A stretch of 64,000 nucleotides of DNA. Source: a virus (lineage: Duplodnaviria > Caudoviricetes). The notes beneath the pieces were generated by a model. That model searched no databases. It was not told the origin of the DNA and worked only from the letters and a program-made list of their open reading frames with translations. How positions within the stretch are numbered: the stretch's first letter is position 1; each line of letters opens with the position of its first letter. Shown here one piece after another: positions 1,096 through 29,420 of the stretch. The DNA is taken from IMG/VR virus record IMGVR_UViG_3300011226_000001, positions 32,001 to 96,000 of that record, one strand, 5' to 3'. The position numbers and the translations under genes were made by a program.

Positions 1096-1965
1096 TTAAG
1101 TCCTCGTTGACCAATCACGCGCAAGATCCATAACACGCTTGCGACCGTTGAAGTTGATCTCAGGATTATCCAGTAAGCGTTCGAAGTACGCAGGTACTCC
1201 AGCTTCTGTTTGATAGCCGCGGTGAGGACGATGCCCTACCACAGCGATGTGATCAGCCCATGCTTCTGTAATTGGCATTTTTTGCTTAGGCTGATTTAGT
1301 TCTTGCCACGAACGACCGATGAAGTAGTCATGGACTTTCTTCAACAGCCACGGGTTAACGTGAGTCAGGCCGAAAGTGTCGCACAGCATTTCGTGTTGCA
1401 GCATACCACTTGGGTTATAGCCGTCGACGCCGAGAGACTTCTTACCGTTCTTGAACCACGGAGCCCAGTATTCTTTGCGATACTCGTCGAACTTTTCGAG
1501 TACGCTATGCGGGCCGCTGATTTTTGCGATGTGGGTGTTACGCGCAAAGCAGAAGTAAGCGTCAGCAACAAGGCCGCTGAGAACGTACTTGTAACCTGCT
1601 TCTTTGATTGCCTTGTAGCAATACACCATAGGGTAAGCACACTCATAGTCACGCTTTTTGATACAGCGATACTTGGCGTGAAGTGTGCGCCAACCCTGAG
1701 CGATAGCAGTGTCAGACGTAGGAACTTTCACAAGCGTGAACTCCCAACCCATCTTCTCTGCGACTTTACGCGCGTGTTTGCTGTCGAAACTTTCGTTGTC
1801 GCCCATCTGGAAAGTAAAGGCATGTACCTTCTTTCCTAAGTCATGGGCAGCGAGCCCGCTAACAAGTCCGTCAAGACCACTGGATAGCAGCACTGCCACC
1901 TTGTCGTCTTTGACTTCTGCTTTAACGTGCTGTTCAAACAGCTTGCGCAAAACGTGTTTAGCCAT
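1096..1965 (-). CDS. asparagine-synthetase-like ATP pyrophosphatase (PP-loop amide ligase), no glutaminase domain
   Basis: VAVLLSSGLDG (cf. LSGGLDS) and VLSGLVADAYF (cf. vlsGeGaDElF); 289 aa, synthetase domain only. Confidence 0.75.
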   Translation of the reverse strand: MAKHVLRKLFEQHVKAEVKDDKVAVLLSSGLDGLVSGLAAHDLGKKVHAFTFQMGDNESFDSKHARKVAEKMGWEFTLVKVPTSDTAIAQGWRTLHAKYRCIKKRDYECAYPMVYCYKAIKEAGYKYVLSGLVADAYFCFARNTHIAKISGPHSVLEKFDEYRKEYWAPWFKNGKKSLGVDGYNPSGMLQHEMLCDTFGLTHVNPWLLKKVHDYFIGRSWQELNQPKQKMPITEAWADHIAVVGHRPHRGYQTEAGVPAYFERLLDNPEINFNGRKRVMDLARDWSTRT

Positions 1966-2902
1966 GATTACCCAGCCTTAAAATATTCGCAGTTGTTGTT
2001 CCGTGAAGTTCAGCCAGATAGTCTGCGCGAACGTTAGGACCGAGTAGTTCAATCTCAGAGTCAAACGGTAGCTCAGTATCTGACAATACGAAGGCATGGT
2101 TCATGCTGATTGCGTGGTCAACTCCTGTAAGCAACGTGACTTGCGCATGTGGTGCGTCAGGACAATGCACAGGTGTGTTCTTGGCAGACTGATACAGGTT
2201 ATCGTAGTAACCCACATCAATCGAGTACAGGAACTTGTCTGCGCAGTTAGGTACTAATGCACCGTAACCAAATACTTTACCTGCATCCAGCTTATCGCAG
2301 ATACGAGCAAGCACTGTCTTCGCTACACGCAAATTACCGTTCACAGTTTCATCGCTACTATAACCGGTAAGTGCCATGCCAACACGCGGTTTCAACTTCG
2401 GCGCGTACGGATTAAGCACGTTCATGCTTGAGCCAACAGACAGCATAGACAGCGGTACGTTGTAGCGTTGTGCAATCTCGTTAGCATCGTACTCAGACAC
2501 AGGCACACGGTAATCATCCGAGTGAACAAGAATCAATGCTGGTGGGTGCGTTAAACCTTCAGGCTTGACGTTGATACGACGACAACCCCAATCAGCAAAG
2601 ACAGCGTATCGTCCTTCATACTTGCCTACTTGCTTTGCGTTCAGAACAGGCACTGTATTCCACATGCGCCCGTCTACACCACCGAGAATTAACAGCGTGT
2701 GGTCGAGTTCAAGTTCACGCAGCGCGAGCACGTCACGGTCGCTATGAACAGCGAGCACCTCAAACCCTAAAGAGAATGCTTTCACGCAATCTAAACCATG
2801 CCCGTAGAAATTACCTTTCACAACCGGAATCATGGACGGAGCGAGTGATTTTAAATAGGCCGCATTACTCGCTAACGCGGCATTGTCGATTAAGACTTTC
2901 AT
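1958..2902 (-). CDS. alr: alanine-racemase-like PLP enzyme
   Basis: VVKGNFYGHG (PLP Lys), RVGMALTG, FGYG (catalytic Tyr position), DVGYYD, ISMN. Confidence 0.8.
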   Translation of the reverse strand: MKVLIDNAALASNAAYLKSLAPSMIPVVKGNFYGHGLDCVKAFSLGFEVLAVHSDRDVLALRELELDHTLLILGGVDGRMWNTVPVLNAKQVGKYEGRYAVFADWGCRRINVKPEGLTHPPALILVHSDDYRVPVSEYDANEIAQRYNVPLSMLSVGSSMNVLNPYAPKLKPRVGMALTGYSSDETVNGNLRVAKTVLARICDKLDAGKVFGYGALVPNCADKFLYSIDVGYYDNLYQSAKNTPVHCPDAPHAQVTLLTGVDHAISMNHAFVLSDTELPFDSEIELLGPNVRADYLAELHGTTTANILRLGNHG

Positions 2903-3933
2903 CAGCGTTTCAGCGTCGTGATGTAGTGAGCAACACGGTCGAACTCTTCACCGCCCGCTTGTGGATCAAACGCTACGTAACCACTGCTCTTAGAAAGATT
3001 ACGCAGATACACTTCACGCTCTTTCCTTGTCATCTTCACTTCGCAGAAGTTGATACTGATACCGACAACTTTCGGGTACCAGTCGTGCATTGCGGCAGCA
3101 GCGAGATTGGCAGAGATCTCGTCAACGATGTTGATCTCGCGCTCGGTGTTCATCATGAAGTTGCGACCGACAGTGTGGCAGACAACGATAGCGTCAGGCT
3201 GAGAGCCAGCAATCAGGCTCATGCTACCGCCGGTGTAAGCTGGATGACGCAGCGCACCCTGACCTTCAATCAGATAGATAGCTTCTTCGTCAGCAGGTGA
3301 CAGCCACTCAGCAGCACCGGCAAGGAAGTCAGCGACCACAGTGTCGTTGTTGATGCCACGACCGCTAATCAGAAAACCAGTTTGACCGGTAGCACAGAAC
3401 ACAGCTTTCTGTTTCAGCTCGGTCAGCTTCTTGGTCAGTGCGAGTGCAGTAAATTTCTTACCGCACGAACAGTCAGTACCAACAGTAAGAACACGAACAC
3501 CGGCACGAGGCAGACCAGTGCCCAGAGGATATTGCTCAGGGTGGTGGCGGAAGTCATACAGCGATACTCCATGCTCACGAGCTAAAGCGAAGTATTTAGG
3601 GTTGTCAGACAGCTTGACATGCAGAGCAGCAGCAACGTTCAGGCCTCGCTTCAATGCTTCGCAGATGGCGCGATCAATGTCTTCGTTAATCTGACCGCCA
3701 AATGGTGCAAACCCGATGACCAGAGTTTCTGCATCGGTCTTATCGAGGTCACGAATTTCAACGTGAGGCATTTCAGGGAACAGGTTGTTAGCATCGTCAA
3801 CTACACAGCAGACTTTCTCTGACGCCCACTCAACCATACCGGCAGTGATCTTCGCCATTGCTTTCGTCGTGGCGTTACCACAGAACATCGCGTACGGTTG
3901 CGGAATATTATAGATATCACCAATCACGCTCAT
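2902..3933 (-). CDS. DUF1611 / DgcN-like P-loop protein (D-glutamate N-acetyltransferase family)
   Basis: GTDCSCGKKFTAL, ATGQTG, DFLAGAAE, IEGQGALRHP; start MSVIGDIY overlaps the upstream stop. Confidence 0.8.
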   Translation of the reverse strand: MSVIGDIYNIPQPYAMFCGNATTKAMAKITAGMVEWASEKVCCVVDDANNLFPEMPHVEIRDLDKTDAETLVIGFAPFGGQINEDIDRAICEALKRGLNVAAALHVKLSDNPKYFALAREHGVSLYDFRHHPEQYPLGTGLPRAGVRVLTVGTDCSCGKKFTALALTKKLTELKQKAVFCATGQTGFLISGRGINNDTVVADFLAGAAEWLSPADEEAIYLIEGQGALRHPAYTGGSMSLIAGSQPDAIVVCHTVGRNFMMNTEREINIVDEISANLAAAAMHDWYPKVVGISINFCEVKMTRKEREVYLRNLSKSSGYVAFDPQAGGEEFDRVAHYITTLKR

Positions 3934-5195
3934 TTCTTCTTCCCTTTCGTTTTGATTTTGGTGCCATCGAACGTCAAGCCCATACGAGCATGACACTTGT
4001 GTATAGCTTTTACAGTACGCATTAACGTCTGCGTCTTCGACCAGTCTACTACGCCTTTTTCTTCGAGTTCTTTCGACAGGTCGGTCTTCATAGGCTTGCC
4101 GTCATCAGGCACGACTGCATTCTTCATGAAGTCAGCCCAGCCTTTGTCTACGCTCTTGCACCAGTTTGTCAGCAGCGTAGCGCGTTCAGCTTTCGTCAGG
4201 TACTTCGTGCAAGCCCAGTAAGCAATCTCATTGCCCAGTTCTTCCACCTCTTTCGCAGTCACACGGTCAACAGTGCGAATGTGGATGTGCTTGTTCTCAG
4301 AGCAGAAGCGCGTATAGTCTCGCGCCCAATCGTACTTAGAAGTTTGCACAACGAACGTCGGGCAGTACGGAATAGTCTCACGTACACCGTTAGCGAATGA
4401 CTCTACTTCGGCACATGACAGCGCTACGGTACATTGTCCAATGAACGCCATCTTCTCGTCGCCGGACAGACCGCTAACGACTTGATAATCTTTCACACCT
4501 GCATCAGCAAGCTCTTTCTCCCAGCTTCTGACTTGACGATCAGAGCCGGTCATCACACGAACAGGCAGACCAGATGCAGCAGCAATACGCGCAGCAAACG
4601 CAGGACGCTTAACCTTCTCGTATCGACAGATAATCAGCAGCGAGGGTTTACGTTTCGCAGGAGGATTGTAGTCTGATACACTGAATGCGTTGTACGCAAC
4701 AGCAGCCTCAGTTTTATAAATCTCAGACAGCACACGCGCAGTTGAGTCACAGTTCGCTAAGATACGCAGACCAGTGACAGGCGCTTGCAGCAGCGCACGG
4801 TGCATCTTCTCAGCGCCAAGCCCGTTCAGGTCTTGCGTCAACAGGAAGCTGTTATGTGAACGGTAGTAAACAGGCATAATCTTAGGCAGCCCGAGACCGA
4901 CAGCAGCTTCGACAGCTTCGTAGGTGCTACAAATGATTGCACGGTACGGAGTGCGGTCGAGCGCTTCGAGCAGAGCACTTTGAATGTGACCAACTTTGTA
5001 CCCGTCACTCAGAGTGGTGTCACCGTAGTTAAACCACTGGCTCTTGGTGACAGAGCTGTTTTCACCGTCAGTGATGAAGTCGCAGAAGCCGTACGCTTCG
5101 AGTCCATCAATGTACGCACCTACACCAGACTTGGTTCTGTCCAGAAGAGTCTTGTGAGGCACGATTGCTAAGATACGCCCGTTTACTTTCATCAT
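3930..5195 (-). CDS. glycosyltransferase, GT-B fold (GT4-like)
   Basis: SGVGAY, CRYEKVKRP, SCAEVESFANGVRE (ExF...E signature); start moved to MMKVNG. Confidence 0.7.
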   Translation of the reverse strand: MMKVNGRILAIVPHKTLLDRTKSGVGAYIDGLEAYGFCDFITDGENSSVTKSQWFNYGDTTLSDGYKVGHIQSALLEALDRTPYRAIICSTYEAVEAAVGLGLPKIMPVYYRSHNSFLLTQDLNGLGAEKMHRALLQAPVTGLRILANCDSTARVLSEIYKTEAAVAYNAFSVSDYNPPAKRKPSLLIICRYEKVKRPAFAARIAAASGLPVRVMTGSDRQVRSWEKELADAGVKDYQVVSGLSGDEKMAFIGQCTVALSCAEVESFANGVRETIPYCPTFVVQTSKYDWARDYTRFCSENKHIHIRTVDRVTAKEVEELGNEIAYWACTKYLTKAERATLLTNWCKSVDKGWADFMKNAVVPDDGKPMKTDLSKELEEKGVVDWSKTQTLMRTVKAIHKCHARMGLTFDGTKIKTKGKKK

Positions 5196-5202
5196 ACTTC
5201 CC

Positions 5203-5973
5203 TTACTTAATTGCGATCCATCCAGCGAAGTTAAGATCGCGGTAGAAACATTCAACGCGGTCGAAGCCTGCTTTGCGCAGCAGTTCTTCGTTCCACGCGG
5301 CTTTGACAGGTACGAGTACGCCTTCAAGAGCTTTGCGTTTCGTCGCAATGCTCTCTTGCGAATAACCGTTGTCGCCCTTCATGCCGTAGTAAGTATCCAC
5401 CAGCAGACGGTCGAGGAAGTTGTCGTCACCCAACACTTTCTCAACGAGAATGAACGCACCGCCTTTCTGCAACGAGTCGTACACTTTCTCCAGAATGTGC
5501 TGACGATGTTCTATCGGCGTAAACTGGAGAGTAAGTACCGATAGAATAAGCGAACACTCTACCTGCTCGTCGAAGCGGAACGTGTCTACTTCAACCAGCG
5601 ACTCGCTACTGATTTTCGCTTTAGCCGTTTTCAGCACAGGGTTTTCACGCAGACGCTCAAGCATTGCAGGCGCGACTTCGTAGCAGCAATACATGTTGCC
5701 GACTTCACGATCAGGCTCAGGACGATCAGCAGCGTGGAGATACATGTACTCGCCGAACTCAGCACAGAACGGTTCGATAGCACGTCCAAGTGAAGCACCC
5801 AGATCAACGATAGCTGAACCCGGAGTCACGAACTGGCGACCAAGACGATAGGTCAGATCGCGCATACGATCATAGGAAGGAATTGAGTTTTGCAGCATGT
5901 TATCGAACACAGCAGCAACTGGCTCATTGAACTCCCAGCGACCGACAGGCATTGTTTTATCAACGTTGCTCAT
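5203..5973 (-). CDS. cmoA: CmoA-like SAM-dependent enzyme (carboxy-SAM synthase / methyltransferase)
   Basis: WEFNEPVAAVFDNMLQNSIPSY, DLGASLG, LTLQF, GGAFILVEK, GYSQESIATKRKALE and NFAGWIAIK follow E. coli CmoA motifs. Confidence 0.8.
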   Translation of the reverse strand: MSNVDKTMPVGRWEFNEPVAAVFDNMLQNSIPSYDRMRDLTYRLGRQFVTPGSAIVDLGASLGRAIEPFCAEFGEYMYLHAADRPEPDREVGNMYCCYEVAPAMLERLRENPVLKTAKAKISSESLVEVDTFRFDEQVECSLILSVLTLQFTPIEHRQHILEKVYDSLQKGGAFILVEKVLGDDNFLDRLLVDTYYGMKGDNGYSQESIATKRKALEGVLVPVKAAWNEELLRKAGFDRVECFYRDLNFAGWIAIK

Positions 5974-6023
5974 GTTTAAATTCCGTTATTTGTTTTGACA
6001 GCAGAAATTACCGTTCGCAGATG

Positions 6024-6785
6024 CTAGACGCGAAAACGACGACCGCTAACAGTGCCTCGTGTTTCCGAGGAATCACTAAAGCCGCGCGTCTTATCTGGAG
6101 GCGCAATAGGTCCGTTAAACACAGCAGCCAGATCATTGTACGCACGAGGCTCCGCCAACTTTTTGCCAGCAGCAGCGGCATCAGCTTTTGCTTTCTCACG
6201 CGCTTTCTTTGACGCAACGATACGAGGGTCGGTATATAGAGGCTCGCGTTTCATATCCAGAATGGACATCATGCGATGTGGGTGCGTTTCTGCAATCTGA
6301 CGTATCTTGTCCATCTCACCTTTGCGTACTGCCATGCGCAGGATAGACTGACCTGTTGAGATTTCAGATGTTGTACCGGCGCGGACTAAACGACGACGAC
6401 ACTCACCCAAACCGAACCATGTTCCCGCTGATTTCCACACAGAGTAGTCACCACGAGACAACTGACCGAAGCGTTTAAGCTCAAGGAAACGGAACTGCCA
6501 GTTGCTACCGTAAAGATTAATTGCAGCAGCGATGTAGATAGGTTGAATGTTGAGAGAAAGACCAATCTCTACAGCATTGTACGAAGCAGTACAGAAAGAG
6601 CCGACCTGAGAAAGACAGAACTCGAAATATTCTAACGAGTCGGCACACAGGTCACTCGTAGCTGACTTGCTAAGAATGCGTGTGCGCCCATCTTTCATAA
6701 GTCCCTCAAGCATCTCACGACTAGGCGTGGGCCGAGTATAATCCAGTCTCTTTAAACGGGCTTCAATTTTCTGTACAGTAATCAT
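6024..6785 (-). CDS. hypothetical protein
   Basis: 253-aa ORF coupled to the neighbouring gene. Confidence 0.7.
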   Translation of the reverse strand: MITVQKIEARLKRLDYTRPTPSREMLEGLMKDGRTRILSKSATSDLCADSLEYFEFCLSQVGSFCTASYNAVEIGLSLNIQPIYIAAAINLYGSNWQFRFLELKRFGQLSRGDYSVWKSAGTWFGLGECRRRLVRAGTTSEISTGQSILRMAVRKGEMDKIRQIAETHPHRMMSILDMKREPLYTDPRIVASKKAREKAKADAAAAGKKLAEPRAYNDLAAVFNGPIAPPDKTRGFSDSSETRGTVSGRRFRV

Positions 6786-7126
6786 GGCACGTACTCCGAC
6801 ATCTTATCGTGCGTTGTTACGCCTTCCAGATAGTCACATGCAATGAGCTTTAGACGGAAGGTTGTTTTGTCTTTCGGGAAGACGTTAGCGTCCAGATTGC
6901 GGAACGAGCAACTGTATCGTACTCGGTACAAACCGCCTTCTGTCTGAGCGTACAGGACTTCGTTTTCCTGAATCGCTTGAATTACAGGTACGGCGCATCC
7001 CGGCTTCACTTCTACCTGTATTGATTTCGTCGCTTGCTCAACGACGACACTTAAAATTGAGTGTTGGCCACTATCGGTTCCATCTCCGTAAAAGAGCCAA
7101 TCAAATCCGCGTATTGTATTCATCAA
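6782..7126 (-). CDS. hypothetical protein
   Basis: 114-aa ORF, ATGA overlap. Confidence 0.7.
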   Translation of the reverse strand: MMNTIRGFDWLFYGDGTDSGQHSILSVVVEQATKSIQVEVKPGCAVPVIQAIQENEVLYAQTEGGLYRVRYSCSFRNLDANVFPKDKTTFRLKLIACDYLEGVTTHDKMSEYVP

Positions 7127-12896: not shown

Positions 12897-15725
12897 TTAT
12901 TTCCGGCCAATCATTCGAGTACGAGCACTACCAAGAACACGACCACTAGGCAGAGCAACGCGCGAGCTACTAGCAGTGCCTGAGTTGAGTCGATGCGCTA
13001 CGCGACCCAAGCGATTCGGGTCACGGTTGATTGATACTTCTGGTGCTTTCGTCAGATACTCGTCGTACTCGCCACACTCGAAGCCATACACCATGAGTGC
13101 CATTGCTCGCCACAGGTCATCGGTTGCCCCTGTGTTCTTGATTACGCTGCGGCCTGTATCTTGCACAGTCTGCAATTGCATGATCAAGTGCTCTGTTGGT
13201 TTGTTCTCGAAGCACTGAGGATATTCGTCACCGTCGTATTTCAACGTGTCAGCAATCTTGTCAGCGTGAGTCATTCGCGGTAGACTAATGCGTGACGGCG
13301 TTGATTCGAACATCGTCTTAACTGTCCACATGTCCTGATACTTCAAGCTGTACTGGTCGGACTCCTCGATGGAATCCACTTTCAGTTTCGCATCCTGCAA
13401 CAACTTGAGTGACTGCCACTGGTCAGCAAGCATTACGCGAACGTTACGCGCTTTGCACAGCGGAATAAGCAGTTCATCAAATATCAAGGTGTAGTTCAGA
13501 GGGATGCCTGGCTTCGGTACGATCTCAACAAGACAATCGACACTGATAATCCCTGCATCGTCGCGTGAGCCTGTAACGAGTGCGAAGCTGTTGTTCGAGA
13601 AGCCTGCGTCAATTGCAAGTATCGACGCTTTGGTTGTCGTTGCCGCTTTGACGAGACTGCCATAGCGCTGGCGTTCACCGTCTTTGTGTCGAATGATGTG
13701 ATGGGCATATGTACACATCGAACGACCTTTCTCACGTATTGCATCCTGAATGAAGGTTGGTTGCGTGATGAATGGGTTAGCAGACAACGGTGCTTCTGCT
13801 CCGTAATCTCGGGCTGCACCTACCGGGTCACGACGAAACGCTTCTACAAGGAACTCAGAGGTACGCGGCATTGTCGGGTTCATCTTCCACGTAGGAGCAT
13901 GAATACCGAGCAGCTTCTCAGAGCCTACTGACATACGAAGCAATTCGTTAATCTTATCACGGGCGTGAACCGGACTACTGATGTTACAGAAATATCCCGT
14001 GAATGCTTCATCATAACCGGATTCGACTTGCCGCATCTCGGCAGAACGAACAGTTGCGAGTGAACGGTCAAGTGCACCGTAGACTGCACCAGCACTGACT
14101 TTGATCTTCTTGGATTGGGCGTCGTTGTCGAAATACGCCACTTCGTCGATTACCGCCAGTACGCGGGTTCGACCACGAAGAATACGACCATCAGGTCCGG
14201 CAGGGTAGATAACGAAGTTCCTGTGTCCGTACAGTACGAACGTGTCACGAATCTTCATCACTTCGATGCCGTAACGGCGCTCGTGTTTGCGAATCAAATC
14301 GTGATAGGCTTGGAACCACGGACTACCCATGATGTAGTTGAAGTACGGAGTCCACAATGTATCAGACGCTTGCTTCTGGGTAAGCGCAACGAACGTACCG
14401 TGCAATACGGTTGTGCTGTCGATGCCCAAGATACCAGTAGGCGACTGCGACATAAGCAGTCTGTGCGTCAGATAGGTAGAGATCATCGCTACTACAACTG
14501 ACTTACCGCTGTTGTGATGCAGAATGCCTGACGCAACGAATTGAGGCAGACCTTCCATCTGCAAGTCATACGTGACCTGCGGAGTACCGTCATCAACGGA
14601 CATTACTTCGATGTGAATCGAACGACACTGAGGCTGCTCAGTCAAGTCATAGACTAAGCTCCACATGCGCGTACCGTGAACGATTTGCGGCAAGTGTCCT
14701 GCGTTGATCAGAATCGACCACACCATTTGAAGTGCGTCAACATCATCGGTAACGTACTGCATCTTTTCGCCCAGAGGCACACTGCGTTCAGCGATATAAC
14801 GCAGCGCTTCTTCACGCGTAGACAGACCAGCATCATAGATACTTACAGGACGCTGTATCTTGCCCCATGAGTTCGTACCGAGTTTGACTTCGATACGCTC
14901 ACCGCCGCGCAGCTTCGACACTTTCTTAAAGCCTTGCTCAGTACGCACAGGGTGCTCATGAGTTGCTTCAATCCACATACCGTTTGCGAGCGTGACGACT
15001 TTGGTAGGCGCTACGTCTGACACATAGACTTGACTGACGTTCTTGATCTCACGGCCGTTGTGCGCGTTGAAGTTACGCTGCGGCTTGTGGAACCCAGGCA
15101 CATCATGACCAATCATCATGTGACCGATAGGCATAACACCACGAGAGGTCAGCACAGGAGTTGAGGCAATCACACAACGCTGTCCGGCGTTCACCGCCAG
15201 TTCGTTGTAGAAGTTCATCTCTTTCTTGCGAATCATCTCAGAACGACGAGAGCCGCAATGGGGGCACACACCATTGTGAAGCAGGTGTAAATGTGTCTCT
15301 ATTGCGGCTGTCGTTTCTTGAGGCTCGTGGTTTTCAGTGTACATCCATTGCAAGTTTGGTGAGCACTTAACGCAGATCTCACCAAACAAGCGCAGACCAA
15401 TCATGGCCTGTTCGAGATAAGGGTCGGCTTTTAAGAAGTCAGGACTCGTACACCACTCAAGGAAATTCTTGGCGCGTGGCATCGCACTATCATCAAACTT
15501 CAAATCGCGTGGCACAAGTGTGCGCTGCTCTAAAGCCCCTTCAACGAGATCGACAATGTTGACCTCGCCCTTTTCGAGAAAGTTAATCCCACTCGAACTA
15601 TTATCCGACAAGAAATCCATATCGGATGAGGCATCCGCCTGAACGTCATCACCAAGTAGTGCATCGAATGCAGCTATTCGCTTAGGACGTATCGTGAATG
15701 CTGGGCCCTTTTTAGGCTTGGCCAT
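12897..15725 (-). CDS. terL: terminase large subunit with intein
   Basis: Walker A AGQR|SGKS split by the intein; LRGRT; Walker B VIDE; ISSP; nuclease motifs AIDAG, DQWQS, TDDLWRA. Confidence 0.9.
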   Translation of the reverse strand: MAKPKKGPAFTIRPKRIAAFDALLGDDVQADASSDMDFLSDNSSSGINFLEKGEVNIVDLVEGALEQRTLVPRDLKFDDSAMPRAKNFLEWCTSPDFLKADPYLEQAMIGLRLFGEICVKCSPNLQWMYTENHEPQETTAAIETHLHLLHNGVCPHCGSRRSEMIRKKEMNFYNELAVNAGQRCVIASTPVLTSRGVMPIGHMMIGHDVPGFHKPQRNFNAHNGREIKNVSQVYVSDVAPTKVVTLANGMWIEATHEHPVRTEQGFKKVSKLRGGERIEVKLGTNSWGKIQRPVSIYDAGLSTREEALRYIAERSVPLGEKMQYVTDDVDALQMVWSILINAGHLPQIVHGTRMWSLVYDLTEQPQCRSIHIEVMSVDDGTPQVTYDLQMEGLPQFVASGILHHNSGKSVVVAMISTYLTHRLLMSQSPTGILGIDSTTVLHGTFVALTQKQASDTLWTPYFNYIMGSPWFQAYHDLIRKHERRYGIEVMKIRDTFVLYGHRNFVIYPAGPDGRILRGRTRVLAVIDEVAYFDNDAQSKKIKVSAGAVYGALDRSLATVRSAEMRQVESGYDEAFTGYFCNISSPVHARDKINELLRMSVGSEKLLGIHAPTWKMNPTMPRTSEFLVEAFRRDPVGAARDYGAEAPLSANPFITQPTFIQDAIREKGRSMCTYAHHIIRHKDGERQRYGSLVKAATTTKASILAIDAGFSNNSFALVTGSRDDAGIISVDCLVEIVPKPGIPLNYTLIFDELLIPLCKARNVRVMLADQWQSLKLLQDAKLKVDSIEESDQYSLKYQDMWTVKTMFESTPSRISLPRMTHADKIADTLKYDGDEYPQCFENKPTEHLIMQLQTVQDTGRSVIKNTGATDDLWRAMALMVYGFECGEYDEYLTKAPEVSINRDPNRLGRVAHRLNSGTASSSRVALPSGRVLGSARTRMIGRK
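14511..15176 (-). mobile_element. cis-splicing intein (222 aa) in the terminase Walker A motif
   Basis: Begins CVIASTPV; block B ATHEHP; block F TYDLQM; ends HHN followed by Ser. Confidence 0.92.
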
Positions 15726-22823: not shown

Positions 22824-24479
22824 TCAAAGACTTACCGGCAGCTTGTCGTCAGGTGATTTCAGATAAGCCTTAACTTTCGCGGCAGTACCATTAGCAGCAT
22901 ACTTGCCTGGCTCTTTCAGACCACATTTATACTCTGCAATCTCGGCCTTGATTTCTTTAATCTTGGCGACGAGTCCTGCACGTTCGAGTTTAGCCAGCTT
23001 ACGCACTTGACGGTCGAGAATGATCTTCGCATCGTCAACAGGAATCTTGCAGGCTTTCGCAAGAGCAGCATCAGGGTCTGCGGCTACCAGCACTTTAGGC
23101 AGCGCTTTGAGTAACTTGTCCATGTTGTCTACTGCCCACAAGTAAACCTCTTGCAGATGTAGGGCTTTCTCTGCTTTGGCCATCTTGTTTTTGAGCATCG
23201 CTATTTCTAGCTTAATGCGATACGCAACCCACGCTTTGAAGTAGTTCACATACGACAGATACATAAACTTGTTCGAGGCATCAGCACGGCGAACTGTCAC
23301 ACCCAGCGAGTAGTTGATCGCGGAGGTAACTTCACGCTGCACCTTAGTTGCGAGTTCATACAGCACATCGTCACTACCACGACACTTGATAGCGAACGCT
23401 GCGCCCCACGGACCGGCATCTTTGTTCTTCTTCGAGCTGGCGTTTGACGCAGACACAACACCAGGCCACTCTGCAATCTTCTCCAGCTTCTTGGTGATAG
23501 TTGCGTTGTTAGACATACCGCCTGGCACATACGTTTGAATCGTGATCGTCTTCGTCTTCTCGTCGATCTTCATCTGCGGTTCGTATGTGACTTTACCGCG
23601 GCCTGTAGACATGAGCGCGAGGAAGTCTTCATCAGAGCTTACGTCGAGACAGCCATACTCATGATTGACTTTGAGCGTGTCCGCGAGTTTCTTCGCGCTG
23701 TACTCTTTGCCATTGAGCATATCACACACGACTTTCGCAACTGACGTAAAGCTGAACGATGGGTTACCGCACTTAACGCCGTACGCAGGCGCTGGCACAC
23801 TACCGTTGAACAACATGTACGGTAACAGTGCAGGCAGATACAGAGGTATCTTCATATCGTTCGAGAAGTTGTCCACCATCGGTGTTACTTCGAGATAGTC
23901 AGGGTCGAGCAAGAAGCTACCCGCGAACTTACTCATTTTCGCTTCGGTATAACGCATCGCAGCAGCAGGCGCTACAGGGTCACCCCAGTTACCTTGACCC
24001 GCTACAGCAGGAGGCACTGTGTTTGCAATCGTTACCATCGCACCGTAGCAAGCAGCATCGCCGTGTGGGTGATACTTACCTAACGCATCACCAACAGTAC
24101 GCGCAGCTTTCTTGAAAGCACCGCCAGGGCGTAACCCCAAGTCTGACAGCGACCAGAGTAATGCACGGTGAACGGGCTTGAGGCCGTCACGATAGTCAGC
24201 GATAGCACGGTCCTCAACAACGTATGAACCGTACTGGAAGAGAGCGCGTCGCGTGTAGTCAGCAAGGTTCTCGTCACGAATGAGGGACTCGTCTTGACCA
24301 ATCATCGGGTACAGCGAAGTACCTGTAGCAGTCTCAACTACTTCGCCTTTCTTCTTTTTCTTTTTCGGCAAGTCATCGGCAGCTACTGCTTTCGATTTTG
24401 ACTTCAACTTAACCTTTGCAGGTTTCGCTACCGCAGTCGATTTCTTTTCGACTTTAACTTTCTTCGGCTTAACTGCCAT
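22824..24479 (-). CDS. gyrA: type IIA topoisomerase subunit A (GyrA/ParC-like), lacking the C-terminal pinwheel
   Basis: RAIADYRDGLKPVHR, KYHPHGD, GQGNWG, AAMRYTE (catalytic Tyr); start MAVKPKK with GGAGG RBS. Confidence 0.92.
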   Translation of the reverse strand: MAVKPKKVKVEKKSTAVAKPAKVKLKSKSKAVAADDLPKKKKKKGEVVETATGTSLYPMIGQDESLIRDENLADYTRRALFQYGSYVVEDRAIADYRDGLKPVHRALLWSLSDLGLRPGGAFKKAARTVGDALGKYHPHGDAACYGAMVTIANTVPPAVAGQGNWGDPVAPAAAMRYTEAKMSKFAGSFLLDPDYLEVTPMVDNFSNDMKIPLYLPALLPYMLFNGSVPAPAYGVKCGNPSFSFTSVAKVVCDMLNGKEYSAKKLADTLKVNHEYGCLDVSSDEDFLALMSTGRGKVTYEPQMKIDEKTKTITIQTYVPGGMSNNATITKKLEKIAEWPGVVSASNASSKKNKDAGPWGAAFAIKCRGSDDVLYELATKVQREVTSAINYSLGVTVRRADASNKFMYLSYVNYFKAWVAYRIKLEIAMLKNKMAKAEKALHLQEVYLWAVDNMDKLLKALPKVLVAADPDAALAKACKIPVDDAKIILDRQVRKLAKLERAGLVAKIKEIKAEIAEYKCGLKEPGKYAANGTAAKVKAYLKSPDDKLPVSL

Positions 24480-24480
24480 G

Positions 24481-25230
24481 TTATTCCTCCAGACCCAGCA
24501 GACGACGACGATGGACTGCATCTTCTGCAAGTACACCTCGGAAGAAACGCTCCTGCTCAACGCTAGTGAACGGGTTCACGCGAATCAAGCGGCGAGTCTT
24601 CGGATTGAATGAGATCGCTTCGAGCACGTCAGGTTCAACTTCACCCCAACCTTTTGCACGAACGATTTCTTTATCTTTTACAGCAGCAGGAGCTTTCGCT
24701 CGGCATTCTTCAAATGTCATGCCACCGTAGTGAATGCCTTTGTGCATCACGTTATACAGAGGCGCATCGACGATCCACACACGACCCTCTTTCATCAGGT
24801 CAGGCAGCAGTCGATAGATAACGCCGAGGAACAACGTTGCGATGTGGAATCCATCAGGGTCAGCATCCATCAGGAACAACAGGTTGCCGATACGCAGATT
24901 CTTCGTGCTCAACTTCGGCGCTTCTGCTTTCGGGTCTAACGATTTCAGGTCAGCACCCACAGACACTAACATGCCCTGCACTTCTTTGTGCTTGAGTACG
25001 TCAGCGAGACTTGCTTTCAGACCGTTAAGCGGCTTACCACCAGCGAGCATAACTTCCTGATAGTCAGGGTTACGTGCGTGTTTGGCCGTGTTATGCACAA
25101 CGACGCCATTACCTAGCACGAAGTTATGATGCACAGGCATAGTCGCATCGTACACGGGAACTGGTGTGTCTAACTTCACGCGACGGACAGCTTTAACTGT
25201 CAAATTCGTCGTAGTAGAAGATGATTCCAT
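24481..25230 (-). CDS. gyrB: GyrB/ParE C-terminal half fused to the C-intein
   Basis: AAGGAG RBS, then IntC ending VVVHN|TAKHAR; GKPLN, MDADPDGFHI, RAKGWGE. Confidence 0.92.
   Translation of the reverse strand: MESSSTTTNLTVKAVRRVKLDTPVPVYDATMPVHHNFVLGNGVVVHNTAKHARNPDYQEVMLAGGKPLNGLKASLADVLKHKEVQGMLVSVGADLKSLDPKAEAPKLSTKNLRIGNLLFLMDADPDGFHIATLFLGVIYRLLPDLMKEGRVWIVDAPLYNVMHKGIHYGGMTFEECRAKAPAAVKDKEIVRAKGWGEVEPDVLEAISFNPKTRRLIRVNPFTSVEQERFFRGVLAEDAVHRRRLLGLEE
25090..25230 (-). mobile_element. split intein, C-terminal fragment (47 aa)
   Basis: VKAVRRV...VYDATMPVHHNFVLGNGVVVHN, +1 residue Thr. Confidence 0.92.
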
Positions 25231-25279
25231 TTTAGCTGTCTCCTTCGACAACAATGATAATTTAATCACATCAGAATCA

Positions 25280-25441
25280 TTAGTCAGGATTCTGGTTTTG
25301 TTCGTTCATGCGCTCGTTTTCTTCACGCTCGCGTTCATCTTCTTCCTCCTGACGCTCACGATATACTCGTTTGTCAGGGTCTTCGATAGATGGTGATTTG
25401 GTGCTGTCAGTATCGACGCTTAACGAAACATAAATCTTCAT
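25280..25441 (-). CDS. unannotated 53-aa acidic/charged peptide
   Basis: AAGGA RBS; MKIYVSLSVDTDSTKSPSIEDPDKRVYRERQEEEDEREREENERMNEQNQNPD; double stop TAATGA. Confidence 0.6.
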   Translation of the reverse strand: MKIYVSLSVDTDSTKSPSIEDPDKRVYRERQEEEDEREREENERMNEQNQNPD

Positions 25442-25468
25442 AGCTATTCCTTATTTACAGAGGTCTGT

Positions 25469-26677
25469 ATGAGCCTAATAAAAGCACACAAACGCTTGAG
25501 CAAGAAGTTTAGCAAAGAGTTCAAATCCCTAATGCCAATCTTCTTTGAGCAACGCGACAAGAAACAATGCAACGCACTTGTACGCGACTCATACCCAAAA
25601 CTGTTTGACGCTATCGAACAGGCAACAGGTTGCACTGTCTTTAAATTAGACCCAGCAGCGTTTCACACCTTACTTACTGGTGAGGTTGCTGCACAGTGCC
25701 ACAATAAAGGTTGCACGAATATGTGTGGCTACGATAAAGGCAAACGCAAGTACAAAGAGTTTTGCTCCAAGCAATGTGCCAACGCTAGCGGTGCTATCAA
25801 AGAACGGCGCGAAGCAACAATGCTCAAAAAGTACGGCGTTAAAAATGCGTATGCGGCACCAGAGATTCAAGCTAAGATTGCAAGCAAGAATATCGAGAAG
25901 TACGGAACAGCCAACGCATCGTCAAGCGACAAGGTAAAGCAGAAGCGCCGCAAGACTTTTCAAAAACGCTACGGCATCAATTCTCCTATGGAGAGTTCAG
26001 AGTTTCGTGGACGTCTGAAAGATTCCATACGTACTCGCTACGGTGTAGACAACGTAGCACAAAGTCCTGTAGTTCAAGCGAAGACAGAAGCAACGTGTAT
26101 TGAACGTTACGGTGTCTCTCGCGTTATGCACGACCCTGAGATCGCAGCGTACACACATAAGCGGTCAGTAGAAGGCAGCATGATGAAGTACGGTGTACCG
26201 AATGCGATGCTTCATCCAGACGTGCTAGCCAGGTGGCAAGACTCTCTGGGACGCAGAACTGAAATGACAATCTGCGGCAAGACAGTCTACGTTCAGGGCT
26301 ATGAGCGTTTCGTATTCGAACGTCTGCACCAACTCAAACCGTTTAAATCAATTACCACTCGTATGCCGCAGTCAGCAATGGTGCCTTATACTTTCAAAGG
26401 CAAGCAACGCAGATATGTTCCTGACGCTGCAATCAAACTGCCTGACGGCTCAGTACGCGTGGTCGAGGTAAAGAGCTGGTTCACGCTACGCAACGAAGCA
26501 AACGTAGAGAAGTTTAAGGCGGCAACCAAACACTTCAACGCTCGTGGTATAGACTTCGTAGTTATCATAGCGGAACCAGAATACGATTACATTCGCGTAA
26601 TAGTTAACCCGAAGAAAGGGCTCAAGTCACTTGTACGCACGGCACATCTTTTCAGTAGTGGCCGTCGAACTTGGTAA
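25469..26677 (+). CDS. free-standing putative homing endonuclease (Zn motif, 23-aa YG repeats, PD-(D/E)XK domain)
   Basis: GAGG RBS; CHNKGC..FCSKQC; six (K/R)YG repeats; RYVPDAAI..VVEVKS; the only convincing plus-strand gene. Confidence 0.8.
   Translation: MSLIKAHKRLSKKFSKEFKSLMPIFFEQRDKKQCNALVRDSYPKLFDAIEQATGCTVFKLDPAAFHTLLTGEVAAQCHNKGCTNMCGYDKGKRKYKEFCSKQCANASGAIKERREATMLKKYGVKNAYAAPEIQAKIASKNIEKYGTANASSSDKVKQKRRKTFQKRYGINSPMESSEFRGRLKDSIRTRYGVDNVAQSPVVQAKTEATCIERYGVSRVMHDPEIAAYTHKRSVEGSMMKYGVPNAMLHPDVLARWQDSLGRRTEMTICGKTVYVQGYERFVFERLHQLKPFKSITTRMPQSAMVPYTFKGKQRRYVPDAAIKLPDGSVRVVEVKSWFTLRNEANVEKFKAATKHFNARGIDFVVIIAEPEYDYIRVIVNPKKGLKSLVRTAHLFSSGRRTW
25802..26226 (+). repeat. six ~23-aa protein repeats centred on (K/R)YG
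   Basis: KKYGVKN, EKYGTAN, KRYGINS, TRYGVDN, ERYGVSR, MKYGVPN. Confidence 0.8.
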
Positions 26678-28391
26678 GCTGATCACCTGGCTGTAGGTCG
26701 GCGGCTGCAACATAGCGGCTGCCGTCTACTAACCACGGATGGTCTAACGTACATACATAAACAGTACCGTCAGACATTTCAACTTCCACCAGCTCGTCAA
26801 CATATTTGGTCAGACGCGGCTCGTCAAACACATGACGCTCGAACGACTGCTTTTCAATGTTGAAACTAATCCCTTCAAATACTTCACCCTGCTTTGTGCG
26901 CTCGGCAAGTTCTTCGAATGAGAAGACGCTACCATCTGCCAATCGAACAGGCGTGGTACCAATGAAACAACCACCAGCAGAGTCGCCTTCTACAACGATA
27001 AGCTCACGCTCATGAGGCTTACACTTGAGCGCAGAGATCAGGTCAGCAGGGAGTGAGTTGCCTTTCAGCTTCTTCTTCGTGTCTGCCATTGACTTAACAA
27101 CAGCGGACAGTTCTTCACGCCCCTTGTTCATCGCTTCGGCGCGTTTGATGATCGTCGTTGCGACTTTCTTATTGTCCTTGAAGTATTTCACGAATGCTTC
27201 TTTCAGCATCTCGTATACTTCTTTCTCAACACGACTCGCCAGCTTGTCTTTAACCTGTGAGGTGTATTGAGCGCCGTGCATACGCCAGTCGAACATACCT
27301 GTCAGGCCGATAAGCAAATCTTCTTGTTTGAAGTTCTGCTTCTTCTTGCCTTTGCCTTTCGATTCTTTCATGAAAGGTTTGATTGCTTCGAACAGCGCGT
27401 CACGGAAACCTACAACGTGCCACCCGCCGTCAATTGTCGGGCTGGTGTTAACGAAACTGAGGAAGTTGTCAGTGTCAGGATGATCTGTCCACGTCAGCGC
27501 AGCGGTGATGTTGTCGTTCTTGAAGATGAACGGTTTGCCAACTGAACCGAGTTCGCGTTCTTCAACCATCGTCTTAACAACGTGCGCGAGATCTTTCTTG
27601 TTATGGAAAGTGAACTCTTTGCGCTTGCCTTTCTTGATCAACGTCAGGCGAACTTCGAGGCCCGGGTTGAGCATAGACATGTTACGCAGCCAGCGGCCTA
27701 AATGATCAGGAAGCGGAGCGGCGTGACGATAGTTCTTCGGCAGCTTCTTACCACGCATAACGTCAGCAGACACAACAGTCTGGTCGAGCGTCCACGCAAC
27801 AATCGTACCATACTTGGTGTGCTTCTTATCTTTTAAGAGAGCCATAACATCTTTATCGACGCCTTTGACTTTCTTAGGGTCTTTACCAGATTGGGCTTCA
27901 CCTTTCTGCCACATCTGATACGCACAACCGCCTTTATACATTGACCAGACACGAAGTTGGTCAGACACTGCGTTCAATGCTGCAACGCCTACACCGTGAG
28001 TACCAGCAGAGGTCTTATATGCTTTATCATCGAACTTACCGCCGGCGTGTGTGCGACTGAACGCTGCGGTCATGATCGTTTCTTTGGTGCCGTTCTTCAA
28101 TTTCTTGAAGTCTGTCGGGATACCACCAGCATGGTCAGCTACAACGTTCAGGTCGTTGTCGTAGTCGATGACAACTTCGATGACTTTGTTCCTGTTGGCG
28201 ATGTACTCGTCATAGGCGTTATCCACCGCCTCTTTGACTGTACGGTATGCCATATCAGTACCGCGTTCACCTAAGTACATCCCTGGGTTGGCACGAAGTC
28301 CCGATAGGCCTTCATGAATGACGAAGCCTTCCTGCTCACCGCCGTCACCCGTTTTCTTTTTAACTTTTGCAGCTTTTGGCGTCTTAGCCAT
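26652..28391 (-). CDS. gyrB: GyrB/ParE N-terminal half (GHKL ATPase to the start of TOPRIM) fused to the N-intein
   Basis: RANPGMYLG, EAVDNAYDE, DHAGGIP, HAGGKF, GTHGVG, VEGDSAGG|CF. Confidence 0.93.
   Translation of the reverse strand: MAKTPKAAKVKKKTGDGGEQEGFVIHEGLSGLRANPGMYLGERGTDMAYRTVKEAVDNAYDEYIANRNKVIEVVIDYDNDLNVVADHAGGIPTDFKKLKNGTKETIMTAAFSRTHAGGKFDDKAYKTSAGTHGVGVAALNAVSDQLRVWSMYKGGCAYQMWQKGEAQSGKDPKKVKGVDKDVMALLKDKKHTKYGTIVAWTLDQTVVSADVMRGKKLPKNYRHAAPLPDHLGRWLRNMSMLNPGLEVRLTLIKKGKRKEFTFHNKKDLAHVVKTMVEERELGSVGKPFIFKNDNITAALTWTDHPDTDNFLSFVNTSPTIDGGWHVVGFRDALFEAIKPFMKESKGKGKKKQNFKQEDLLIGLTGMFDWRMHGAQYTSQVKDKLASRVEKEVYEMLKEAFVKYFKDNKKVATTIIKRAEAMNKGREELSAVVKSMADTKKKLKGNSLPADLISALKCKPHERELIVVEGDSAGGCFIGTTPVRLADGSVFSFEELAERTKQGEVFEGISFNIEKQSFERHVFDEPRLTKYVDELVEVEMSDGTVYVCTLDHPWLVDGSRYVAAADLQPGDQLTKFDGHY
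26655..26969 (-). mobile_element. split intein, N-terminal fragment (105 aa)
   Basis: CFIGTTPVRLADG (block A), CTLDHPW (block B), AADLQPGDQL, then stop. Confidence 0.92.
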
Positions 28392-28421
28392 TGTAAGTTT
28401 CTCCGAATGAAAACACGATTG

Positions 28422-29420
28422 TTATTTACACTTACGTTTGTCGTAGGCGTCAACAATCTGTTCAACCGTATACTTGCCGTAATAGTCGTCAAATATATCG
28501 CCATGCTTTTTCTCAAACGCTGCAATGCGCTTGAGCAAGTCGTCCAACTCAATATGATTCATACTGTGCTTAATCATATTAGTTCTTGCAGCCATCAATT
28601 TCAAATTGCACGGATGACAAATAACAGACAGAGCTACAGGCTGCTTGCGCGGCACATAGTCTTTTCCGTTGAACTCGTAATAACCGTTCGTCTTCGAGAA
28701 CTGATGATCAAGATGAATGTCTTTCGACTCACCAGACAACCATCTGTCTATACGATGCGTACCCTCAGGGAACAAGTGTGGGAAACGCGATACCACCATG
28801 TACGTGAAGCGGTGAACGATTCGTTTGTATTGAACGAACGTTATACCGCACAGGCTTCGGTCTAAGTTATTCTCCCATGCTTGAATCGCAGTCTTTGAGA
28901 AAAGGATTGTACCTTTCTTTATCTTGTGGCGTCTACCATGCTTCGTTGCTTCGGCTATCGCTTCTGCATGGGTCCGTCGTTCAATGCCGACTGACTCAAA
29001 GTAACGAGACAGCATACAGGTCTTAAACGGAAGCCCTGTCTTCTCACGTATGACCTCTGCTATTGAGCTTCTGGTCATTCCCTTATCCTGATACATGCTC
29101 ACCAGCAATGAGTGGTTCTTCGCACAAAACGCATTGGCGTCTTCGTCACTCATAGTCTTTTTCTTTCGTGTCAGAGAAAACGCGTTAAGAGCTTTCTGCA
29201 CCGACGAGTGAGGTATACCTGTCTTCTCGGTAATCCCTCTAAGAGTCAATTGCTGGTCAACATACAGTTCAGTGAGCAACTGGCGCAAGGCTTTATTCTG
29301 CACCAGTGCCCATCCACCGTTTGTCTGTTTCTTGTAGGTTAGACCTTTCTTTTTGAGAATGTCGCCCACATTACCTACAGACCTCGGAATTGCAACATAC
29401 ATAAAACACCCCGAATACAT
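28422..29420 (-). CDS. putative HNH homing endonuclease with N-terminal HTH repeats
   Basis: LYVDQQLTLRGITEKTGIP and MYQDKGMTRSSIAE HTH-like segments; HLDHQFS..HPCNLKLM..TNMIKH. Confidence 0.65.
   Translation of the reverse strand: MYSGCFMYVAIPRSVGNVGDILKKKGLTYKKQTNGGWALVQNKALRQLLTELYVDQQLTLRGITEKTGIPHSSVQKALNAFSLTRKKKTMSDEDANAFCAKNHSLLVSMYQDKGMTRSSIAEVIREKTGLPFKTCMLSRYFESVGIERRTHAEAIAEATKHGRRHKIKKGTILFSKTAIQAWENNLDRSLCGITFVQYKRIVHRFTYMVVSRFPHLFPEGTHRIDRWLSGESKDIHLDHQFSKTNGYYEFNGKDYVPRKQPVALSVICHPCNLKLMAARTNMIKHSMNHIELDDLLKRIAAFEKKHGDIFDDYYGKYTVEQIVDAYDKRKCK

Follow-up and report, generated by a model that had tools for sequence, protein, structure and literature searches.

A predicted split intein and an inverted homing endonuclease gene divide the topoisomerase II large-subunit gene of a jumbo phage

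How can a phage make a topoisomerase II large subunit when the gene for it is broken in two within its catalytic TOPRIM domain? The question is raised by a locus in a 64,000-nt stretch of jumbo phage DNA (the window, in full bases 32001-96000 of the 268,224-bp virus record IMGVR_UViG_3300011226_000001, which has direct terminal repeats). The topoisomerase genes of the window share 85-92% DNA identity with Alexandravirus jumbo phages of Erwinia and Dickeya, and the one encoding the GyrB-like large subunit is interrupted by 1880 bp of additional DNA. We propose that this is a fractured gene, in which a mobile split-intein cassette occupies the TOPRIM site EGDSAGG|T and the enzyme would be joined after translation by protein trans-splicing. 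We put the probability of this reading at roughly 85%.

Two half-genes and the insert between them

The N-terminal half is a minus-strand open reading frame (ORF) of 579 aa (26652-28391), consisting of an N-extein and the N-terminal half of an intein (IntN). The N-extein (474 aa, 26970-28391) comprises the ATPase, the transducer, and the first TOPRIM strand of a GyrB-like large subunit of topoisomerase II, with matches to Pfam DNA_gyraseB (3e-27) and HATPase_c, and is 90.5% identical in amino acid sequence to the intact protein of Erwinia phage pEa_SNUABM_1. Its last residues, VVEGDSAGG, contain the catalytic-Glu motif EGDSAGG and run without interruption into CFIGTTPV, the start of IntN. The C-terminal half is a separate gene on the same strand, which begins with the C-terminal half of the intein (IntC) and continues into a C-extein of 202 aa plus stop (24481-25089), with Thr+1, the remainder of TOPRIM, and the GyrB C-terminal domain (Pfam Toprim and DNA_gyraseB_C). 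This C-extein starts with TAKHARN, bears the DxDxD metal site (LMDADPDG), and is 99.5% identical in amino acid sequence to its pEa_SNUABM_1 counterpart. TOPRIM is incomplete in either half, as the catalytic Glu is encoded in the first and the DxDxD site in the second.

When the exteins are rejoined, they reproduce residue for residue the layout of the uninterrupted 675-aa protein of pEa_SNUABM_1, with EGDSAGG-TAKHARN at the junction. The nucleotide alignment to this phage is unbroken on the phage side and interrupted in the window exactly at 25089/26970. The insert therefore spans 25090-26969, from the first base of the Cys codon through the last base of the Asn codon. In pEa_SNUABM_1, which lacks the intein, the sequence around the empty site reads GTAGAAGGTGACTCTGCTGGTGGT|ACTGCGAAA, and the insert is absent from all 51 related GenBank phage records. 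The match between the observed anatomy and the layout of a split intein is far beyond chance.

A first-pass annotation of this DNA had described an N-half ending in EGDSAGG and a 105-aa IntN, as well as a separate, AAGGAG-led gene starting with a 47-aa IntC, and this is borne out to the base. The junction it had predicted, EGDSAGG-TAK, is the one found in the intact 675-aa protein, and the gap that it had estimated at about 1.4 kb measures 1421 nt from the stop codon of IntN to the start codon of IntC. While its description of the halves was correct, it made no mention of the homing endonuclease gene that lies in the gap on the opposite strand.

A gap of this kind could also represent an RNA intron or an assembly artefact, in which case a contiguous cis-intein or an intact gene would be translated. 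We found nothing in its favour and regard it as hardly credible. No Rfam match at E<=1 was found in 24300-28600, the gap is occupied by an intact ORF on the opposite strand, and the halves carry their own signals: a stop codon for IntN, and a Shine-Dalgarno sequence and ATG for IntC. Moreover, the same layout recurs in independent assemblies of many samples, drawn from ENA, Logan, JGI, and IMG/VR.

The intein halves are intact and split at the canonical site

IntN (105 aa plus stop, 26652-26969, minus strand; coding bases 26969-26655) starts with Cys1 in CFIGTTPV, contains block B with T74-x-x-H77 (CTLDH) and block N4 (GDQLT), and terminates as GDQLTKFDGHY-stop, 5 residues past block N4. IntC (47 aa, 25090-25230, minus strand) begins at the ATG at 25230, ahead of the long block-F strand. 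It consists of a first strand (TVKAVRRVKL), block F (VPVYDATMPVHHNF) with its Asp (VYDAT...HHNF), and block G (GNGVVVHN), whose VVVHN end provides the penultimate His and the terminal Asn, with Thr at the +1 position. The 17 aligned inteins at the GyrB site share, without exception, Cys1, the Thr and His of block B, the Asp of block F, a His-Asn end, and Thr or Ser at +1, and the IntC blocks are conserved in 9 split loci. Against the TIGR01443 model (intein_Cterm), IntC scores 24.5 bits, above the cut-off of 15.6.

The 2 halves differ in charge. IntN contains 20 Asp/Glu against 9 Lys/Arg (net -11), while IntC has a net charge of +1 with a basic KAVRRVK patch. The residue counts of IntN and the patch agree exactly with the first-pass annotation. 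The charge pattern is kept in all 9 complete split loci, where IntN ranges from -6 to -13 and IntC from 0 to +3 with a basic first strand.

The fold was modelled on a contiguous relative in place of the window halves. This relative (P0006, residues 475-627) is a 153-aa mini-intein that is 60-72% identical to the window halves, within a topoisomerase that is 81-87% identical to that of the window. The HINT fold was predicted with a predicted local distance difference test (pLDDT) score of 88, and its best structural match was the NrdJ-1 split intein (template modelling score 0.76), along with approximately 50 other inteins, including those of RecA, DnaB, DnaE, and RadA. Foldseek E-values ranged from 5e-8 to 1e-5 for the NrdJ-1, RecA, DnaB, and DnaE inteins. 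The split point of the window corresponds to residues ~111-117 of the model, the loop of lowest pLDDT, which lies between N4 and the long strand of block F. The break is thus located between N4 and F, at the canonical site where endonuclease domains sit. Among 50,697 GenBank phage records, no close relatives of the intein were found, the best match being 37% identical.

An endonuclease gene on the opposite strand

The gap between the halves, and with it the split of the gene, is accounted for by a free-standing gene for a homing endonuclease, which fills it on the opposite strand (25469-26677, plus strand). The gene is intact and encodes a protein of 402 aa that matches Pfam DUF7487 (8.9e-37) and Tn7_TnsA-like_N (PF08722, 37.4 bits, cut-off 26.5), and that falls in PHROG families of homing endonucleases. 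Its 3' end overlaps the 3' end of IntN convergently over 26 nt, such that the tail of IntN past N4 (KFDGHY) is the antisense reading of the endonuclease tail (SSGRRTW).

In alignments of 6 and of 17 homologues, invariant residues included C77, C82, C99, and C103, as well as the Gly and Asn of YGV.N repeats. E279, D319, E333, and K335 were invariant in the 17 homologues, and make up the canonical PD-(D/E)xK set. An AlphaFold model of the protein (pLDDT 88) has a helical N-terminus, a small (4-Cys zinc) ribbon, helical repeats, and a nuclease domain of alpha/beta type. The fold of this domain matches TnsA, Hjc, and other PD-(D/E)xK nucleases; for TnsA (1t0f/1f1z), the match has a probability of 1.0, with weak E-values of 0.02-0.06. 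A Foldseek search with the whole 402-aa model returned weak matches, every one of them to a PD-(D/E)xK nuclease, and a search of the sequence against the Protein Data Bank returned no match.

Assignment to the EDxHD/Vsr-like class was considered and rejected, as the protein has no match to the Vsr or DUF559 Pfam families and its invariant E/D/ExK residues come without a His. In relatives found elsewhere, DUF7487 is fused to a nuclease domain of the Vsr, DUF559, or MTES type, so that the DNA-binding module is one that Vsr-type phage endonucleases also possess, while the catalytic domain of the present protein is a different one.

One insertion site in several states

Relatives of the locus were collected through a search with the IntN region, which yielded both N-halves ending in IntN and contiguous forms, and were supplemented with 10 IMG/VR loci. 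A split intein with an antisense DUF7487/TnsA-like gene overlapping IntN was found in at least 7 further loci (L003/L004, L007, L010 (partial), L011, L012, L013, and L021). Three loci were split without an endonuclease gene, with gaps of 51 nt (L006), 306 nt (L008), and 176 nt (L015), and 3 others contained contiguous mini-inteins (L005, L016, and L018). In the 306-nt gap of L008, residues 3-77 of the endonuclease can still be recognized as an antisense remnant (E 1.6e-11), which indicates that the endonuclease decayed there while the split intein stayed. A comparison with gyrB of related phages had been proposed in the first-pass annotation, and the intact, contiguous-intein, and split forms that it had envisaged were all found.

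Two further loci, L009 (1392-5760) and L014 (1088-7164), have a different arrangement, with IntN fused in frame to an HNH-type region. The next gene lies in another frame with an overlap of 8-48 nt, and carries a leader of 40-90 residues ahead of IntC. These loci may represent an intermediate in which the endonuclease domain is still attached to IntN.

The cassette is mobile and under purifying selection

The clearest record of movement comes from the partial locus L010. Its N-extein is only 48% identical to that of the window in amino acid sequence (52% in DNA), whereas identity reaches 97% in IntN (92.7% in DNA) and 95% in the overlapping part of the endonuclease. The block of high identity begins 29 nt ahead of the Cys codon. 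Nor is this a one-off assembly, as the sequence cluster P0001 has 30 members. The combination of a diverged N-extein with a near-identical IntN and endonuclease points to a recent lateral transfer of the cassette. Conversely, in L005, the closest intein-bearing relative by its extein, the intein is only 60-72% identical. That the cassette is 93% identical at the nucleotide level between phages whose exteins are 52% identical also lends indirect support to homing by the endonuclease, which would cleave alleles lacking the element and bring about its own copying.

Selection was estimated against the sister contig L021 (87.6% nucleotide identity over 4.5 kb; dS 0.3-0.6), as the ratio of nonsynonymous to synonymous substitution rates (dN/dS). 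Values were 0.07 for IntN, 0.02 for IntC, and 0.12 for the endonuclease, for which estimates range over 0.09-0.12, and those of the intein halves and the endonuclease did not exceed those of the exteins. No frameshifts or internal stops were detected in the halves. As judged from these sequences, the cassette moves among phage topoisomerase genes that are only distantly related, and its intein halves and nuclease are all kept functional.

These values bear on a second explanation, in which a selfish insertion has broken the topoisomerase gene, which is now decaying while the phage makes use of the host gyrase or topoisomerase IV. T4 remains viable when its topoisomerase is mutated, with a DNA-delay phenotype, and the cassette is missing from the 51 related GenBank phages, both of which would fit such a scenario. 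A decaying gene would not, however, be expected to show the strong purifying selection seen on both exteins and both intein halves, with their reading frames uninterrupted, nor to keep its split arrangement in widely diverged phages, including those without the endonuclease. We therefore regard this explanation as very improbable. The label “essential”, which the first-pass annotation had attached to the topoisomerase subunit, was an overstatement.

Proposed mechanism

In the mechanism that we propose, the topoisomerase would be made as 2 separately translated polypeptides, an N-half ending in the acidic IntN and a C-half led by the basic strand of IntC. Electrostatic attraction between IntN and this strand would bring the intein halves together, and they would fold into a HINT domain. 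Class-1 trans-splicing would then proceed through a thioester at Cys1, attack by Thr+1, and cyclization of Asn47, restoring a continuous EGDSAGG-TAK protein with a complete TOPRIM domain. In parallel, the PD-(D/E)xK endonuclease would cut the intein-less alleles of co-infecting phages, and repair would copy in the whole cassette. By removing the cost of insertion, the intein would render the cassette harmless.

Trans-splicing of the GyrB-like halves is strongly predicted from their sequences. The reading of the locus as a naturally split intein that breaks a phage gyrB-like gene, already put forward in the first-pass annotation, is supported by the intact catalytic blocks, the canonical split site, the conserved charges, purifying selection, and the persistence of the split intein after loss of the nuclease.

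Several points weigh against it. Splicing is a prediction from gene sequences, and the cassette-bearing relatives are all metagenomic contigs. Scans for sigma-70-type promoters and intrinsic terminators were convincing for nothing, with counts no higher than in shuffled sequence. IntN scores 23.9 bits against the TIGR01445 model (intein_Nterm), 0.6 bits short of the cut-off of 24.5, and Pfam Intein_splicing (PF14890) scores 23.1 bits (6.9e-5) on the C-half, with a cut-off of 35.8; such sub-cut-off scores of whole-domain models are expected for half-domains. Finally, the T4 topoisomerase works as a non-covalent assembly of gp39 and gp60 after insertion of mobA (PMC2988022), a precedent showing that an enzyme of this type, once split, can do without a covalent link.

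This last point raises the possibility that the 2 polypeptides stay unspliced and function as a non-covalent complex, brought together by the intein halves or by other contacts, like T4 gp39/gp60 or the split NrdA of Aeh1. The charge complementarity of the halves would serve simple docking equally well. Docking requires no nucleophiles, however, and none of the split loci departs from Cys1, the TxxH motif, the Asp of block F, the terminal His-Asn, and Thr/Ser+1. The very low dN/dS of IntC likewise argues against docking alone, and an unspliced complex would leave approximately 150 foreign residues within the TOPRIM active site. Taken together, we judge non-covalent assembly to be quite improbable, and favor trans-splicing as the route by which the enzyme would be completed.

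Expression signals and the intergenic region

The region upstream of the C-half (25238-25265, minus strand) contains putative expression signals. It starts with TTAAATTA (25265-25258), followed by an 18-nt segment (25255-25238) that includes the Shine-Dalgarno sequence AAGGAG (25245-25240), 9 nt ahead of the IntC ATG. The 18-nt segment mimics the end of the N-extein (26999-26982, the IVVEGD codons), with 15 of 18 nt identical; none of 500 shuffles reached an equal match. Both the TAAATTA box and the mimic are conserved in L003, L006, L007, L008, L011, and L012, of which L006 and L008 lack the endonuclease. The mimic can be read in frame, as FILEGDS-M in L007 and as YLVEGDL-M in L011.

Although the mimic itself is real, a locus-specific duplication of the extein end before IntC was rejected as its origin, since matches between loci equalled those within loci. 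It may be a relic of the origin of the split, a ribosome-binding site only, or an operator of the endonuclease. TAAATTA was likewise rejected as a general phage promoter, as it is not enriched elsewhere in the window.

A very acidic ORF of 53 aa (25280-25441, minus strand), for which no family match was found, is located between the start of the endonuclease gene and the gene beginning with IntC. It is 87% identical in amino acid sequence in the sister contig L021 (dN/dS 0.16), and missing from L003, which has an intergenic gap of 64 nt. Its start region (AAGGAATAGCTATG) is similar to the start region of IntC in L003.

A more elaborate reading of these features, which we consider unlikely, is that the cassette is a self-contained, self-regulating mobile unit, with its own promoter-like TAAATTA box, an operator mimic, antisense control, and timed assembly. 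By analogy with I-TevI, which binds at its own promoter, the mimic in the divergent endonuclease/IntC region would then double as Shine-Dalgarno sequence and as an operator bound by the endonuclease. We speculate that, in the inverted orientation, read-through from the topoisomerase gene dampens expression of the endonuclease via antisense RNA. Separate expression of the halves would, in such a unit, time the assembly of active topoisomerase II. As a further part of this reading, the Cys1/Thr+1 pair of the window might turn out to be a split intein that is fast and orthogonal to those already employed.

Neighbouring genes and other inteins

Directly downstream of the C-half, outside the insert, lies the gene for the partner of the large subunit, a GyrA-like topoisomerase II medium subunit (22824-24479, minus strand; Pfam DNA_topoisoIV, 8.9e-57), and this gene order is kept in all related loci. 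Directly upstream of the topoisomerase gene, the window contains a 332-aa ORF (28422-29420, minus strand) that constitutes an insertion relative to pEa_SNUABM_1 (~1090 bp, compared with 68 bp). It has a weak match to a PHROG of HNH endonucleases (1e-7), and the sister contig L021 has a 249-aa ORF at this position. This ORF probably encodes a second free-standing homing endonuclease beside the topoisomerase gene.

Additional inteins were observed in the window and its relatives. The gene for the terminase large subunit (12897-15725, minus strand; PHROG 17415, E=0) contains a contiguous intein-like insert (Pfam Intein_splicing, residues 226-405), which starts at ...QRC|VIAST and ends at LHHN|S at 404-406, and a third intein-like match lies beyond the window (G000:C1:15820-15945). 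The N-half of L009 contains a second, contiguous intein in the ATPase domain. In L008, the GyrA-like partner (4556-7015) has a contiguous intein of its own, with Pfam Intein_splicing located between 2 DNA_topoisoIV segments.

A comparable arrangement was found in a cultured phage, Vibrio phage vB_VcorM_GR11A (L022, MT366761). At 1476-5655, a ResIII/Helicase_C gene contains one contiguous and one split intein, the latter with boundaries at VIVDE|CFPAGT... and ...ILVHN|CHK. The halves are separated by an opposite-strand ORF of 271 aa, which overlaps the end of IntN. The annotation of all 3 genes reads either hypothetical or helicase fragment.

Significance

If the proposed mechanism is correct, the large subunit of a phage topoisomerase II, a replication enzyme, joins the hosts of naturally split inteins, at a GyrB TOPRIM site that was previously listed only with cis inteins and engineered splits. 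A single site presents a natural series: empty, occupied by a contiguous mini-intein, split with an endonuclease, and split with the endonuclease decayed or gone. Together with the recent lateral transfer, this series would make the life cycle of a fractured gene directly testable. The locus would also add a second, inverted cassette architecture and a new nuclease family (DUF7487 with a TnsA-like PD-(D/E)xK domain), with an unannotated example in the helicase gene of the cultured Vibrio phage. Finally, the at least 9 diverged IntN/IntC pairs with Thr/Ser+1 are candidate tools for protein ligation.

Comparison with known systems

In open-access papers and preprints, no description was found of a split intein within GyrB, gyrase, or topoisomerase II from phages. 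The closest precedent is the set of fractured genes with split inteins that Dassa et al. described in 2009 from marine metagenomes, including gp41-1, gp41-8, NrdJ-1, IMPDH-1, NrdA-2, and DnaE (PMC2677866). As in those genes, 2 co-oriented genes occur at one locus with the split between blocks N4 and F, the cassette supplies the stop codon, the start codon, and the expression signals, and the halves are charge-complementary. The likeness extends to the occurrence mainly in phages, to derivatives without an endonuclease, and to NrdJ-1 as the best fold match. Topoisomerase or gyrase is not among their 26 loci, however (PMC2677866). Their endonuclease genes overlap the downstream IntC gene with their 3' ends, which implies co-orientation with the host gene; such an arrangement was found neither here nor in the 7 further loci, where the endonuclease gene is on the opposite strand and, in the window, overlaps IntN convergently. 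Moreover, the endonucleases of Dassa et al. are of the GIY-YIG or Vsr-like (EDxHD) type, rather than of the DUF7487 and TnsA-like PD-(D/E)xK type.

The intein itself is related to the cis inteins of bacterial GyrB, such as Ssp GyrB, which are inserted at the identical point, EGDSAGG|(S/T)AK, and are homologous to IntN with 36-47% identity. The bacterial inteins are contiguous with Ser+1, whereas that of the window is split with Thr+1, and a 2025 review lists Ssp GyrB only as artificially split (PMC11766414). The first-pass annotation had called the Cys1/Thr+1 pair unusual. This went too far, since 12% of inteins have this combination and Thr+1 also occurs in the Neq Pol intein, which is naturally split (PMC11766414).

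The T4 genes 39 and 60 resemble the locus in another respect, as a phage topoisomerase large subunit is split there in a critical region by mobA, which encodes a free-standing homing endonuclease (PMC2988022). Unlike the window, T4 has no intein, its pieces associate non-covalently, and its endonuclease is of the HNH type (PMC2988022). The Pseudomonas jumbo phage MIJ3 has been described to carry a putative split intein in PolB together with an ORF for an HNH endonuclease (PMC6892783); it differs from the window in the host gene, in having a Ser1 intein, and in the endonuclease family. The I-Bth0305I/EDxHD family, which has been associated with fractured genes, shares with the window endonuclease the combination of N-terminal DNA-binding repeats and a C-terminal nuclease with a restriction-enzyme fold (PMC3239194). 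The motif in the window is instead E...D...ExK, as in TnsA and Hjc, rather than EDxHD, and there is no sequence match to the I-Bth0305I structure. What is new here is the host gene, the nuclease family, and the inverted orientation of the nuclease gene, while the principle itself is that of the fractured genes of Dassa et al.

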